Below, piece by piece: positions 2,606 to 56,407 of a stretch of 64,000 nucleotides of DNA. Source of the DNA: a virus. Its lineage: Duplodnaviria; Caudoviricetes. The stretch spans positions 1 to 64,000 of IMG/VR virus record IMGVR_UViG_3300011701_000001; one strand, written 5' to 3'. Positions within the stretch are counted from its first letter, which is position 1. Each line of letters begins with the position of its first letter. The translations under genes and the position numbers were made by a program. The notes under the pieces are model-generated. The model did not search any database. It was not told where the DNA came from and saw only the letters and a program-made list of their open reading frames with translations.

Positions 2606-2682
2606 TGGTGCGCCATGTAGAACTCGAATCTACAACCGTTACCTTAGAGGGGTATTGCTCTGTCCAGTTGAGCTAATGGCGC
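2606..2682 (-). tRNA. tRNA-Arg(UCU) with encoded CCA
   Basis: Cloverleaf read by hand: acceptor GCGCCAT/ATGGCGC, D-arm GCTC-AACTGGACA-GAGC (A20 Arg identity element), anticodon loop CCTCTAA, T-arm GTAGA-TTCGAGT-TCTAC, ACCA end. Confidence 0.93.
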
Positions 2683-49163: not shown

Positions 49164-50431
49164 CTATTCCAATAACCACCTTTCTTTTGTAATTAAATCA
49201 ACACTAATCATATCTTTAACACATGATAGCACCAATAAATCTTCATCTTTATGTTGTACACCCATTAGAGAATCTTCTAAAACCATAAAGTTAAACTCTA
49301 CAGTGTAATCAACTTCCAATTGCAACACCTTATCTAAGTTGTATTTATCAATCAAAGCAATACTCCTGTAAATAAAAACTTAAGACGTTGCCAGAAAGTT
49401 AAAGTGTTAATCTTATTAATTGTCTCTTGGGTTGTATTGAAACTGTCAGTTAGTGCTTCAACCTCAGCCAGCAAATCATTTTTATACTTAACAAGTGTCT
49501 CGTTTGTCTTTAAAGCTCCATTAAGACGCTCTTCTTGTAAACGACACAACTCTTTATAATCATTCAAAGCCTTTAACTCTAAACCAAACACTTCTCTAAC
49601 ATCTTCTGTCATAGCAATGTAATACTCTTGTTTGTCGCCTCTACGATAGAATACACGATGTTCTACGGGGATTTGTTGTACTGTAATAAATTCTTTTGTT
49701 GGGCTATCACCACCTAGATTATATACAGGAACAGAATCGCATCTTCGTTCATAGAAATCTATATGATCTTGAGCAACTACTCGCTTCTCTTTAACGACTG
49801 TGTACAACGTAACTTCTTTCACTGACTGTCTCCTAAATTATCAACATACTCTTGCAACGTACCTTTAGTGTACTCATGAGTAATCAGTAAATTACCATCA
49901 CTATTACCACAAAACAACACACCATCTTTCCAGAAATAAGATTTAAAATTATCACCATCTTGCTCTACATGAAACAAGTAGTAATCACCTTTAACTAATT
50001 CTGATACATCCTTAGTCATAAATTCATCATCAATTATTTCATTGATATTTTCATCAAATAAAGCATTCATTCTACAACTCCTTCATTCAATAATAACACA
50101 CATACCATCATACCAAGCCTCTTTTATCTCGTGTATATCGTTCGCATAATCACAATCATAAGTGTAAACTTCAACATCTCCATGTTTTACTTTATATTCC
50201 TCAAGAAGCTCTACTAATTCACTAATCTTCATATCAGCACCCCTACTTAGTATATTCCATATATGTTTGCACTAAACAAAACACAAAGAATATAGCATAC
50301 ACAATACCAATAATAATAGCTGATGTTAAATCTACACTAACAACATTGTTCTTTAGCAATATAAACAGAACAAATCCTGTTAAAAGTAGTAGCACATCAA
50401 CAAACAAATAAAAATATAAAAACATTAACAT
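49164..50431 (-). other. Five small hypothetical genes (49164-49355, 49352-49822, 49819-50070, 50083-50232, 50243-50431 membrane protein)
   Basis: Coupled ORFs with RBSs. Confidence 0.6.
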
Positions 50432-50985
50432 CTCCTTTAAATTAAGTTAAAGAAGTTATAGCACAACAATAAACAACAATGCAATACCTATTTAATTAAT
50501 AATTTTATTATTTACATTGCTGTTAATGAACACAAACGATAGTGAAGTGTGAATGTTATAGCAATCATTAGAGACTGCAACGCAGACGATAATGCAATCT
50601 AAAAGTATCCAATACAGAATATACATTCTGTTAGCACCAAACAACAATTACTTTATCCGACAGGATAACATTGTGTTGAATATTCTAACTGTGTACGACT
50701 CTGTAGTTTCTATAGTGTAGAACACCCTTTAAGTATCCTTTTAGTTTTATGGATTTGTTTGATTACGACAACAATCCCTTTTTCCTTTAGTGTTATTGTT
50801 GGTGTTGTCTGCACGATATTACTATCCGTAGGATGGTATTCTGTGCTTATTAACTAACAGTGTTATAGTAATATCATACTCAATAGTGTTATAAGGCTCT
50901 TAAAAATTTATTGAAGTAAGTATTTGATTATTATATTAATATTTTTAGTATAAACCAGAAAAAAGCAAACGTCTTGCTTTTAGTG

Positions 50986-51014
50986 TTGACACTTAATTTA
51001 TAAAACACTACTAT
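50986..51014 (+). promoter_or_regulatory. Sigma70-type promoter at the start of the plus-strand arm
   Basis: TTGACA-17 bp-TACTAT. Confidence 0.75.
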
Positions 51015-51043
51015 TCCACTTTAATTAACTTTAGGAGTGTGGA

Positions 51044-52435
51044 GTGAATAGACCTAAGATAACTGTTTTAGATGCCATTATGGGTAACAGTAAAACACAA
51101 AGACTGAAAGAGATTATGTTGAAATTAGAAAATCCTGTCCTGTATATAACACCTTTATTAACAGAATCTATGTCTGTTGTTGGTATTGTTTATGATGAAG
51201 ATGGTAATCAGGTTAAATCTGATGATGGTGTTTACATGTATAATGAGAACAACCCATTGTGTGCTAAAAGATTTAAGATTCCTAATACAAAGAATAAGAA
51301 TAACAGTAAATTAGACAGTTTGGATTTTCTTGTTAGTAAAGGTTACAACATTAGTAGTACACATAAGTTATTCAGCATGTTAACACCAGATATTGCTGAG
51401 AAGTTTGTTGAGAAAAAGTATGTCTTGGTTGTTGATGAAAGTTTAAGTTGTTGGAATAACTTAGCTTTGTTTGATGCTTTCTCTGACGATATGAGAAGAA
51501 TCTCTGAGGATGAAAAGTCTGATCAAAAGGGTGGTGCTACTTCAAGGACAGATAAAGAAGTTCTTGGTTTAATAGAAACAGGAAGTATTGTCGTTGACCC
51601 TGTTGGTTTGTTACACTGGGACTCTGAATCAGAGTATGTACCTAAGGAGGGGATGATTCATTATAACCTAAAGATTCTGTGTGACATGAAGCAGTTGTAC
51701 TTATCTAATGGTAAGGTCGTTTTTTGGGAATTGACTGCTGACCTTATGAAATCTTTCTCTGAGATTTATATTGGTACTTACATGTTTGAGGCAAGCATAA
51801 TGTCACATTATATGGATGTACATAACTTAGAGTATGAGGTTATTAAATTTGGACACAAACCTTCTTTCTACAAAACTTACATTGACATAGTACAAGGCAA
51901 GATGAATGATGTTGGTGAGGGTAAATTTGCACTGTCCTATAGTAAGTTGGAAGGTAAAACTAGAGTTAAAGAAAGTACAAAAGAAACACGAAACACTTTA
52001 AAGAAAAACTTAGATAACTTCTTTAAGAATCGTTGTAAAACCAAAAAAGAGTTTAATCTTTGGACGACTTATATTGATGCTAAGAACTCCATAATGAACT
52101 CCCGATGTAATATTAATTTTGTACCTTACAATATTAAGGCTACCAACGATTATCGACACTGTACAAGTGTTGCATATTTGGTTAACAATTTTCCGAATAC
52201 TTTCTTGGTTGCTATGATCACTAAGAGAAATCAGAAGCGTAAGTTTGATCAAGACATGTGGGCTTTAAGTGAAATGTTACAAATGATTTTCAGAAGTGCA
52301 ATACGTGGCGATAAGGAAAAAGGTGATGAAAGTAGGTATATTAAACTTTATATCCCTTCACAACGTATGAGAAATTTGCTAGAATCTTGGTTAAATGATG
52401 AATTTGAGGAGAAAACTTTTGATAATAAGTGTTGA
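51044..52435 (+). CDS. SF2 helicase-like / origin-binding-type ATPase with degenerate Walker A
   Basis: VLDAIMGNSKT, YITP..TE, STH.LF, LVVDE, Q.IFRSAIR motifs. Confidence 0.7.
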   Translation: MNRPKITVLDAIMGNSKTQRLKEIMLKLENPVLYITPLLTESMSVVGIVYDEDGNQVKSDDGVYMYNENNPLCAKRFKIPNTKNKNNSKLDSLDFLVSKGYNISSTHKLFSMLTPDIAEKFVEKKYVLVVDESLSCWNNLALFDAFSDDMRRISEDEKSDQKGGATSRTDKEVLGLIETGSIVVDPVGLLHWDSESEYVPKEGMIHYNLKILCDMKQLYLSNGKVVFWELTADLMKSFSEIYIGTYMFEASIMSHYMDVHNLEYEVIKFGHKPSFYKTYIDIVQGKMNDVGEGKFALSYSKLEGKTRVKESTKETRNTLKKNLDNFFKNRCKTKKEFNLWTTYIDAKNSIMNSRCNINFVPYNIKATNDYRHCTSVAYLVNNFPNTFLVAMITKRNQKRKFDQDMWALSEMLQMIFRSAIRGDKEKGDESRYIKLYIPSQRMRNLLESWLNDEFEEKTFDNKC

Positions 52436-54693: not shown

Positions 54694-55368
54694 ATGAGTT
54701 ATCACAAAATAAAGATATGTAAACACGATGTAAAAAGCCCTTTTAAACTGCAAGAAGAGTTTTTTGAATATTTGGATGCTGTAGCTAATAAAAACCCCAT
54801 TATGGCTGTTCAGGAGCTTTCTGACTTGTATGGCTGTTTGGAGAATGAAATATCCAAATATGGTATGTCTGTTGAAGACTTGAAAAAGATGTCTGAATTA
54901 ACGAAAAGTGTTTTTAAATCTGGCTTGCGTAAAAGCACACCATTCATCGAATATTTGAAAGATAACAGTGATAGTATTAAGTGTTTTGGACTTGGTTTTG
55001 TTCAGGTTAAATGTGGTGAGTTTAATTATAACTTTTACTCTGATAAAATTGAAAAGTTTTTAAACCATAAAGCACCTCATAATCACCAGCAAGATTTTGT
55101 TGGCGAAATCCTAAAAGGTGAGTTGAAAGAGACTCTTTATAATTTTGAAGAAGGTGTTTCAATAAAACACACAAAAGGTGAGTTGTATTTAAGGTTGAAA
55201 GATGAGTATCATTCTGTGTTAGGTGCTCACGGAACGGTGACTAAAGTGTACAGGATGGGTTCAAAATCTGACGCTTATGATTTATCGGAAAATACCTTGC
55301 ACAATAATACAATTGACTATAGTGTAGATCAGCTTTGGAGTATTGTAGAGGATGTTTGGAATGTATGA
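54694..55368 (+). CDS. MazG-like NTP pyrophosphatase domain fused to a cupin-like domain
   Basis: KLQEEFFEYLDA...ELSDLYG (EE..E...E..D MazG motif); PHNH..DF..EILKG.L.E...YHSV cupin motif. Confidence 0.65.
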   Translation: MSYHKIKICKHDVKSPFKLQEEFFEYLDAVANKNPIMAVQELSDLYGCLENEISKYGMSVEDLKKMSELTKSVFKSGLRKSTPFIEYLKDNSDSIKCFGLGFVQVKCGEFNYNFYSDKIEKFLNHKAPHNHQQDFVGEILKGELKETLYNFEEGVSIKHTKGELYLRLKDEYHSVLGAHGTVTKVYRMGSKSDAYDLSENTLHNNTIDYSVDQLWSIVEDVWNV

Positions 55369-55891
55369 AATAGATTTAAAAGTTTTGTATGAAGCTTTAA
55401 ACCACTATAAAGAACTTGGTTATAAGATGATACCAGCACCTTTATTGGTTGATGAAGATATTGTTTCTTTAACACTACCTGAAGGACGTAAAGCAAAAGA
55501 ACATATAAATGGTTTGTTTTATGTTGGTAGTGCTGAACAATCAGCATATCAATTATACAAAGACGGAGTTCTTAGTTCAGGTAAATACATGCTATTAACA
55601 CCGTGCCAAAGGGATGAAGATATTTTAGATGAAACTCACCTAGAAATATTTTTAAAACTGGAGTTAATATCTTTAGGTGGTGAGTATTCCTCGATATTGA
55701 ATGATGTTTTATCTTTCTATAATAATGACAAATGTGTTGTTATTAATACCTCACAAGGAGAAGATATAAATATTAATGATATAGAGGTTGGTAGTTTCGG
55801 AAGCAGAATTTTTATGGGGACAAATTTCTGTTTTGGTACAGGAATAGCTCTACCAAGATATACACAAGCAATTAATAGGAGTGCAGCATAA
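55352..55891 (+). CDS. Stand-alone class II aminoacyl-tRNA synthetase catalytic core (SerRS-like)
   Basis: Motif 1 GY..I.AP, GSAEQS, motif 2 TPCQRDE...F.KLEL, EVGS.G, motif 3 GTGIALPR. Confidence 0.75.
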   Translation: MFGMYEIDLKVLYEALNHYKELGYKMIPAPLLVDEDIVSLTLPEGRKAKEHINGLFYVGSAEQSAYQLYKDGVLSSGKYMLLTPCQRDEDILDETHLEIFLKLELISLGGEYSSILNDVLSFYNNDKCVVINTSQGEDININDIEVGSFGSRIFMGTNFCFGTGIALPRYTQAINRSAA

Positions 55892-56407
55892 ATGCGTATT
55901 CAGAAAGGAAAGGTTAGATTTAATAAGCGAGAGCTTTGGAACTTAGATAAACACCTCTCTAGAGTTATTGTTCAGGGGTTGGAACAGTTTAAGGGTATTC
56001 GCAAGAATACAATCCCACCTAACTTAGTTACTGAGGATGTTGATCCTGAAACGGGTAAAGAGGTTTATTGGGATTATTCTAGTGAATATTGTGAGGAACA
56101 ATGGCAAGAGTTGTTAGATAAGATGATCTTTGCTTTCACAGAACATCCAACATATTTTAATATTGAACCTTATGATTTTCATTACGATGACTTATCACAC
56201 CCTGAGAAGTTTCCTCCTGTTGTTTGGGAAGATCACCCTGTTTATGGTAAAGTTACTGAGTGGAGACAAATTCTAAAAGAAGGTGTCACACAAGAGGAAG
56301 TTGATGCTTGGTGGGAACGTAGTCGAGCATACGATGCTAAGATTAAGCGTAAGGTAAATGAAGGGCGAGAGTTGTTCATCAAATATTTTGATGACTTGTG
56401 GGATTGA
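55892..56407 (+). CDS. Hypothetical phage protein
   Basis: WNLD..L...W...LDKMIFAF...G.ELF..YF..LWD pattern common in phages. Confidence 0.7.
   Translation: MRIQKGKVRFNKRELWNLDKHLSRVIVQGLEQFKGIRKNTIPPNLVTEDVDPETGKEVYWDYSSEYCEEQWQELLDKMIFAFTEHPTYFNIEPYDFHYDDLSHPEKFPPVVWEDHPVYGKVTEWRQILKEGVTQEEVDAWWERSRAYDAKIKRKVNEGRELFIKYFDDLWD

Follow-up and report, generated by a model that had tools for sequence, protein, structure and literature searches.

We analysed the first 64 kb (hereafter the window) of the virus record IMGVR_UViG_3300011701_000001, a complete 97,814-bp Acinetobacter phage genome with terminal repeats, and examined a two-gene cassette at 54694-55891. Across the cassette, its relative Acinetobacter phage Phab24 has ~88% nucleotide identity. 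The first gene, open reading frame 1 (ORF1; 54694..55368, + strand), encodes 224 amino acids (aa) and was assigned from the ORF call, PHROGs and an AlphaFold2 (AF2) model as a MazG/HisE-like domain fused to a cupin. The second, ORF2 (55361..55891, +), encodes 176 aa and was recognized by PHROGs, AF2, Foldseek and VIA as a minimal class II catalytic core resembling that of seryl-tRNA synthetase (SerRS). A previous interpretation of the bare letters (the sequence-only reading) had called two overlapping + strand genes here, and both are present. The longest form of ORF2 starts at 55352 and has 179 aa, and residue numbers below follow it. Nevertheless, judged from the local sequence, the ATG at 55361 is likely the true start, giving 176 aa, because a GAGG Shine-Dalgarno element that can be read directly (55348..55351, +) lies 9 nt before it and because homologues begin 'MYNID'. 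From this ATG, ORF2 overlaps the stop of ORF1 by 8 nt (ATGTATGA), and an overlapping stop and start of this type is typical of translational coupling. A promoter and terminator scan gave signal at background level only.

ORF2 matched phrog_4806 ('histidyl tRNA synthetase', E 1.4e-45), and in public annotation its family is labelled histidyl- or seryl-tRNA synthetase. The AF2 model (predicted local distance difference test score, pLDDT, 93.5) has the catalytic-core fold of class II aminoacyl-tRNA synthetases (aaRSs), with its antiparallel beta-sheet. Foldseek matched this model to the catalytic domains of PylRS, SerRS and PheRS-alpha (probability 1.00, E ~1e-9, template-modelling score 0.73). 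In VIA, a structure search independent of Foldseek over 48,161 chains, the top match was human mitochondrial SerRS (7u2a; Z 17.6, root-mean-square deviation 2.6 Å, 177/179 residues aligned), which led HisZ, PylRS and other SerRS entries by ~2 Z units. Sixty-eight chains had Z >= 8, and the best 50 of the 68 were all class II cores or paralogs. The second-best structural match was HisZ (3od1 Z 15.5; also 5m8h and 1z7m; range 14.5-15.5), and Bll0957 (3mey), one of the ligases that join amino acids to carrier proteins (aa:CP ligases), reached 14.3, archaeal AsnA 13.0 and GenX/EpmA (3a5y) 12.3. Model residues 1-179 aligned to mitochondrial SerRS 233-469; the protein begins at the core, and the N-terminal coiled-coil tRNA-binding arm was absent from this alignment.

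Aligned with Escherichia coli SerRS, the ORF2 blocks are collinear and the loops between them shortened. In this alignment motif 1 is GY..P.LV, T.LP corresponds to TGQLPKF, and GSAEQS falls on the PTAEVP loop. In motif 2 (55598-55663, +), TPCQRDE corresponds to TPCFRSE and HLEIFLKLE to RMHQFDKVE; EVGS corresponds to EISS, and motif 3 (55835-55858, +), GTGIALPR, to GSGLAVGR. Conservation was then counted over 262 relatives. Motif 1, which usually provides the dimer element in class II enzymes, reads GY..P.P.LV at residues 23-33, with P30 conserved at 93%. R87, F100, K102, E104, E145, S148, T163, R169, S60, E62 and C85 were all 100% conserved; these include the motif 2 Arg (R87) and the motif 3 Arg (R169), and the two Arg together with the positions aligning with conserved SerRS active-site blocks stood at 99-100%. 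A profile search with the family returned 1,364 representative clusters at E <= 1e-10, almost all of 170-200 aa, and the short form is therefore native. ORF2 lies below the cut-offs for SerRS (TIGR00414; Pfam PF00587 with PF02403), and its sole Pfam match was tRNA-synt_2, which scored 15.4 bits where 25 are required. ORF2 is among the smallest class II cores that appear to be active.

These results revise the sequence-only reading in several respects. Its stand-alone class II core without a tRNA arm was borne out, with a length of 176 aa likely in place of the 179 aa given. Its motif 2 (TPCQRDE...FLKLE) and motif 3 were placed correctly, whereas GSAEQS, taken for motif 1, aligns with PTAEVP of SerRS. 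It had also named the class IIb proteins EpmA and AsnA as kin, but class IIa SerRS is nearer (Z 17.6 versus 12-13).

An active site that is SerRS-like throughout raises the question of ordinary tRNA charging. According to this explanation, ORF2 would be a minimal enzyme for host tRNA(Ser), for another tRNA or for a damaged tRNA end, with tRNA binding supplied in trans (by YqeY in some phages), and its MazG-like partner would remove (p)ppGpp or a blocking nucleotide, sustaining translation and damping the stringent response while the phage infects. In Justusliebigvirus KMB37 a true YqeY/GatB-type tRNA-binding domain is indeed encoded directly downstream (Pfam E 4.6e-7), another lies close to the pair on a 254-kb jumbo contig, and MetRS and RNA ligase are occasional neighbours. 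However, YqeY is not a universal neighbour, and neither YqeY nor serS was found in the phage genome, in which the SerRS model TIGR00414 also had zero matches (controls positive). The sole tRNA gene of the 97.8-kb genome is a tRNA-Arg (anticodon TCT; UCU) at 2606-2682 (-). In SerRS the acceptor stem is contacted by the motif-2 loop, and this loop has ~6 residues in ORF2 versus ~13 in the E. coli enzyme. Ordinary charging is thus disfavoured by the missing tRNA-binding arm, the short motif-2 loop, the lack of YqeY and the single tRNA-Arg, and it leaves unexplained an obligate, repeatedly fused MazG-like domain. We consider it unlikely.

The MazG/HisE-like all-alpha domain occupies ORF1 residues 1-88 (54694..54957, +) and was delimited by conservation and by weak HisE and MazG profile matches. 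ORF1 is 77% identical to Phab24_id036 and matched phrog_6408 over residues 2-80 (E 2.7e-17) and phrog_4784 over residues 92-166. In its AF2 model (pLDDT 90.6), residues 1-88 are helical, including the segments that carry the acidic motif E21 E22 E25 D28 ... E41 D44 (54754-54825, +). These acidic residues were 93-99% conserved among 138 sequences, as were Y3, H4, K18, T70, F74 and R79; the Y3-H4 tail was 97% conserved and has no regular secondary structure in the model. Among 40 stand-alone partner members, 34 matched Pfam PRA-PH (HisE; PF01503) and 6 MazG (PF03819), all below cut-off. When the domain alone was used as a profile against the PDB, HisE (1yvw, 2a7w) and the MazG-like 1vmg were among the top matches at E 0.4-0.8, with the motifs in register; a PDB profile search with full-length ORF1 relatives gave no matches. 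Taken together, these results make it probable that ORF1 1-88 is a shortened, remote member of the all-alpha nucleoside triphosphate (NTP) pyrophosphohydrolase superfamily with a family-specific Tyr-His tail. We also considered an acyl-carrier-like role for ORF1 and rejected it: Ser43 of 'ELSDL' is unconserved (Ala in several sequences), and there was no carrier-protein match.

The combination of a class II core with a HisE-like partner recalls histidine biosynthesis. If the pair were regulatory in the manner of HisZ, the core would only sense ATP and an amino acid and allosterically control a hydrolase that trims a nucleotide pool or an alarmone. HisZ is a purely regulatory class II paralog (PMC9437257) and the runner-up structural match to the core, and HisE proteins are the best sequence relatives of the partner. 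On the other hand, HisZ has no adenylation activity (PMC9437257), yet the catalytic-type residues of ORF2 are 100% conserved, and SerRS outscores HisZ. HisG (PF01634) had zero matches in the complete genome, with controls at 14/14, which disfavours this model. A regulatory pair is, on this evidence, highly unlikely.

The cupin barrel fills ORF1 residues 89-224 (54958..55365, +) and was identified by Foldseek, VIA and conservation. Foldseek placed it at probability 1.00 with HppE, 3-hydroxyanthranilate dioxygenase (3-HAO) and cysteine dioxygenase (CDO); VIA gave Z 10.2-8.3 over ORF1 residues 78-205, with about 100-115 residues aligned. The conserved elements GLGF.Q.K, H129-x-H131, D134 and H173 lie at 55078-55212 (+); among 73 sequences the His ligands were conserved at 100% (H129), 98% (H131) and 95% (H173), and GLGF.Q.K and D134 were conserved as well. 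Pfam, including CDO_I, had zero matches for the cupin. Some results point to a thiol dioxygenase: ergothioneine dioxygenase was among the structural matches from Foldseek and VIA, and Atlas language-model features fell in CDO/PCO_ADO clusters with a score of 0.85, a range that shuffled proteins often reach. CDO-type chains (including Bacillus subtilis CDO 3eqe, and 4qm8) had Z 8.5-8.8 in VIA, lower than generic cupins (~10). We therefore treat the thiol-dioxygenase character as a lead only.

A 66-nt in-frame deletion within its cupin leaves the window copy of ORF1 22 aa short of nearly all homologues; aligned with the Phab24 DNA, the junction lies at 55147..55148. Flanked by GAAGAGG / AAGAAGA, the deletion takes out a C-x-C-G hairpin that Phab24 and nearly all homologues have, and of this hairpin a Cys is retained in all other cupin versions, reversed-order and stand-alone ones included. 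Loss of this conserved hairpin suggests that the cupin of the window copy may be impaired, its activity altered or dead. The domain is also rare, occurring at only ~5 of 80 diverse loci from IMG/VR, and variably placed. It is C-terminal to the MazG-like domain in the window copy and in dozens of metagenomic relatives, fused N-terminally in three loci and encoded as a separate gene between partner and core in one. Two distant MazG-cupin fusions, on the 254-kb contig and on a 21-kb contig, are each followed by a core gene (E ~1e-75), and T4-like Acinetobacter phages carry an equivalent cupin domain without the H-x-H ligands. Rare, shuffled, and degenerate or deleted in particular lineages, the cupin is thus an optional module decaying in different ways.

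The core and the MazG-like domain behave differently from the cupin. At 77 of the 80 IMG/VR loci they lie on the same strand within 700 nt of each other, and one of the three unpaired loci ends at a contig edge. At 54 loci of this set the MazG-like domain is directly upstream of the core, often overlapping it. The pair was present in all seven distant named phages examined: Phab24, a T4-like Lazarusvirus, a Justusliebigvirus, Caulobacter phage CcrPW, a Vibrio jumbo phage, Citromicrobium phage RXM and Microcystis phage MaMV-DC. Among 50,697 phage records, the partner was found in 263 and the core in 275, with agreeing per-genus counts. Natural fusions in the order core-MazG occur in P0182, P0197 and MaMV-DC ORF129, and in these the invariant GYH of the Tyr-His tail lies only ~8-10 residues past the motif-3 helix. 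A search for fused forms longer than 315 aa found none, which is weak evidence. The pairing of core and MazG-like domain is far beyond chance.

With respect to the sequence-only reading, the MazG-type NTP pyrophosphatase motif that it had noticed is intact and highly conserved, with profile matches below curated cut-offs. The His-rich cupin that it saw fused to this domain was confirmed by both structure searches (Foldseek probability 1.00, VIA Z ~10). It had treated MazG-cupin and core as one unit; the MazG-like domain and the core are indeed conserved together, but the cupin belongs to few loci. Both the predicted class II aaRS fold and co-occurrence of the genes in very distant phages were found. 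As a whole, that interpretation is partly supported.

Two variants of the pair were seen in addition. The metagenomic protein P0037 (247 aa) runs from the MazG-like domain straight into the core, without the cupin and without the first helix of the core; from its arrangement it looks like the product of a deletion across a MazG-cupin/core gene pair. In phage RXM, gp119 (L006:1624-2316) combines the MazG-like domain with a different C-terminal domain that gives faint P-loop NTPase hints, and a second, ordinary MazG gene lies just upstream of gp119.

The position of the Tyr-His tail, abutting the core C-terminus in the fusions, and its conservation without regular structure fit a ligase for proteins or small molecules, of the EpmA or aa:CP-ligase type. 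Here the MazG-like domain would be an adaptor or an acceptor that offers its Tyr3-His4 tail (or K18/T70) to the adenylate site. Truncated class II paralogs are known to transfer amino acids to elongation factor P (EF-P) or carrier proteins (PMC9437257), and Bll0957 and GenX/EpmA are among the structural matches of ORF2. A passive acceptor, however, would not need the complete acidic metal-binding motif, which is invariant, and stoichiometric self-modification would bring no obvious benefit to the phage. The carrier-protein family PF00550 had zero matches in the complete genome and was not among the listed recurrent neighbour families, and this lack of a carrier protein disfavours the aa:CP-ligase model. 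We regard the ligase explanation as improbable, although less so than a regulatory pair.

Next, we compared sister phages. Bestia and BS46, complete genomes of the same genome type, lack both parts genome-wide, and Phab24 has both. The cassette is accessory to the phage, and its two parts are gained and lost as a unit. Directly downstream, ORF3 (55892-56407, +; 171 aa; phrog_11543, of no assigned function) begins on the base after the ORF2 stop. It is kept at 81-85% nucleotide identity in the cassette-less sister phages (Bestia, BS46, Ab3/5/7, phiAB441), and therefore sets the downstream limit of the accessory insertion and lies outside the module. Beyond phages, a scan of 185,579 species genomes with two subfamily-specific peptide patterns, which detects close relatives only, gave two matches, one of them on a phage-sized contig. 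By this measure, close relatives are all but restricted to viral sequence.

Accessory presence, a location among small early-type genes and near confinement of close relatives to viral sequence could reflect counter-defence, with the pair making, destroying or sequestering a nucleotide immune signal or restoring a pool that a host defence system had depleted. Against this, no known anti-defence family was matched and no defence-related neighbours recur, and occurrence in phages whose hosts differ greatly suggests a general role in metabolism. Nothing found specifically favours the immune-signal role that the sequence-only reading had raised, and we rate counter-defence as improbable, a shade more so than the ligase. 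The other roles raised there, with Ap4A or (p)ppGpp as substrate or product or with aminoacylation of a host target, are likewise speculative. A role in DNA hypermodification was set aside: the phages that carry the module differ greatly in their DNA chemistry, and no modification enzyme recurs beside it.

Since both universal parts look like live enzymes and are tightly linked, we propose that the cassette is one phage-specific two-part enzyme system for an amino-acid or nucleotide reaction that does not involve tRNA, and we give this reading a probability of about 0.55. Part A, ORF2, would be a pared-down SerRS core that keeps motif 1, the ATP-binding Arg, the adenine-stacking Phe, the Mg/ATP Glu-x-x-Ser and the serine-contact positions. 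Part B, ~85 aa at the start of ORF1, would be a HisE/MazG-type domain with the full Mg-binding acidic motif and the invariant Tyr-His tail. Probably the two parts bind each other and work on a single stream of substrate. There is about an even chance that A binds ATP together with a small amino acid, of which serine is the likeliest, and forms an aminoacyl-adenylate. More tentatively, and with the odds somewhat against it, the acceptor or next substrate may be a nucleotide-type molecule handled by B rather than a tRNA. By one possible route, an NTP would attack the adenylate, and the resulting Np4A-type dinucleotide or aminoacyl-nucleotide would be trimmed by B with release of pyrophosphate (PPi). 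The cupin could be an optional third activity with a His-rich metal site, maybe as an oxygenase or isomerase of the amino-acid moiety. A more specific version seems to us very improbable: a single enzyme would couple an activated amino acid with a free nucleotide, or form an Np4A-type dinucleotide and trim it; large lytic phages would use the product, a hitherto undescribed aminoacyl-nucleotide or capped-nucleotide metabolite, to reprogram the host; and in the cupin lineage its amino-acid moiety would be oxidized as well.

Several points weigh against the proposed two-part system. PPi is released by both enzymes, and the coupling chemistry is not obvious. Among the truncated aaRS paralogs studied so far, none is known to us to load a free nucleotide. 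The invariant ORF2 residues are presumably ATP, Mg and serine contacts, by comparison with Thermus thermophilus SerRS structures. For the partner, the best Pfam score was 15.8 bits against a cut-off of 21.3, the PRA-PH matches had E 1.3e-3 to 1, and in structure searches with the whole ORF1 model the matches were occupied by the cupin part. The targets and roles described for aaRS paralogs are carrier proteins, EF-P, lipids, small molecules and regulators (PMC9437257).

The surroundings of the pair were examined at the same 80 loci. No third gene was universal beside the pair; flanking genes were heterogeneous, with a loose nucleotide and translation flavour. Ribonucleotide reductase, ThyA, dCMP deaminase, RpiB, a phosphoribosyl pyrophosphate (PRPP)-synthetase-like protein and NUDIX were neighbours in some lineages. 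R2K-clade ATP-grasp proteins (PF14243 and PF18299; 3 members each) and RpiB (2) recur by the module among loci L008-L087. On the 254-kb jumbo contig (L091:220-8370), which carries MazG-cupin and core, a 60-aa ORF separates the two module genes and a PRPP-synthetase-like phosphoribosyltransferase lies directly upstream; a NUDIX hydrolase, YqeY, a HicB-like protein and a glutathionylspermidine-synthase-type ligase are also present there. Upstream of the cassette in the window, at ~50000-52000, GC skew changes from negative to strongly positive and genes switch orientation to the + strand, which resembles a divergent transcription boundary before a long series of small + strand genes. Ahead of the first gene in this series is a TTGACA-17-TACTAT site (50986-51014). 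The ORF at 51044-52435 (+) encodes a 463-aa protein of phrog_2467 (no assigned function, E 3e-53) with a faint hint of an Rv2179c-like 3'-5' exoribonuclease.

In the full-text literature we found no functional study of the pair, only annotation mentions; it is described neither in a jumbo-phage survey nor in an aaRS-paralog review (PMC9437257). That 2022 review lists SLIMP and the aa:CP ligases as the only SerRS paralogs (PMC9437257). New here are the modular behaviour of the cupin, the deletion in the window copy, the corrected start codon and the presence or absence of the cassette in sister phages. The family is abundant, with about 1,400 clusters at 50% identity and presence in 0.5% of sequenced phages. 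Identifying its substrate would correct an annotation error that is widespread, and a new phage metabolite or a step in host takeover could come to light. Unexpected chemistry has been a recurrent finding among truncated aaRS paralogs; EF-P lysylation, the loading of carrier proteins and the synthesis of asparagine are examples. The locus also offers natural controls in the cassette-less sister phages and in a cupin deletion variant beside the intact Phab24 copy.

Finally, we compared the parts with known systems. The cupin shares its barrel and H-x-H ... H site with the 3-His thiol dioxygenases (CDO, PCO/ADO), but has no Pfam-level match to them, and the window copy is without the conserved Cys hairpin. 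The partner shares EExxE(16)ExxD on consecutive helices with MazG, HisE and dimeric dUTPase and aligns in register with HisE. It is shorter than HisE; alignments begin ~28 residues into HisE, and the first helix therefore appears to be missing from the phage domain. The phage domain adds the invariant Tyr-His tail and T70/F74/R79, and it never occurs without the core in the 80 loci or the 50,697 records.

HisZ and HisE resemble the phage parts in joining a class II paralog and a HisE-type pyrophosphohydrolase in one nucleotide-centred pathway. They differ in that HisZ is non-catalytic and works with HisG, whereas here catalytic-type residues are invariant and HisG is absent. HisZ and HisE are not known to us to be fused or adjacent, as the phage parts are. 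The aa:CP ligases, represented by Bll0957, are likewise class II, SerRS-derived proteins without a tRNA-binding domain that form an aminoacyl-adenylate for a non-tRNA acceptor (PMC9437257). They are, however, ~300 aa long, of methanogen-type SerRS origin, zinc-dependent and paired with a carrier protein, while the ORF2 core is nearer to bacterial and mitochondrial SerRS and its partner is MazG-like. With those class IIa enzymes ORF2 shares the TPC.R.E / F.K.E motif 2, the E..S Mg/ATP strand, the G(T/S)G.A..R motif 3 and the (T/S)AE loop. It differs from them in its size (176 aa versus ~250 for the SerRS core), its trimmed loops, a motif-2 loop of about half the length, the lack of a coiled coil and its obligate MazG-like partner.

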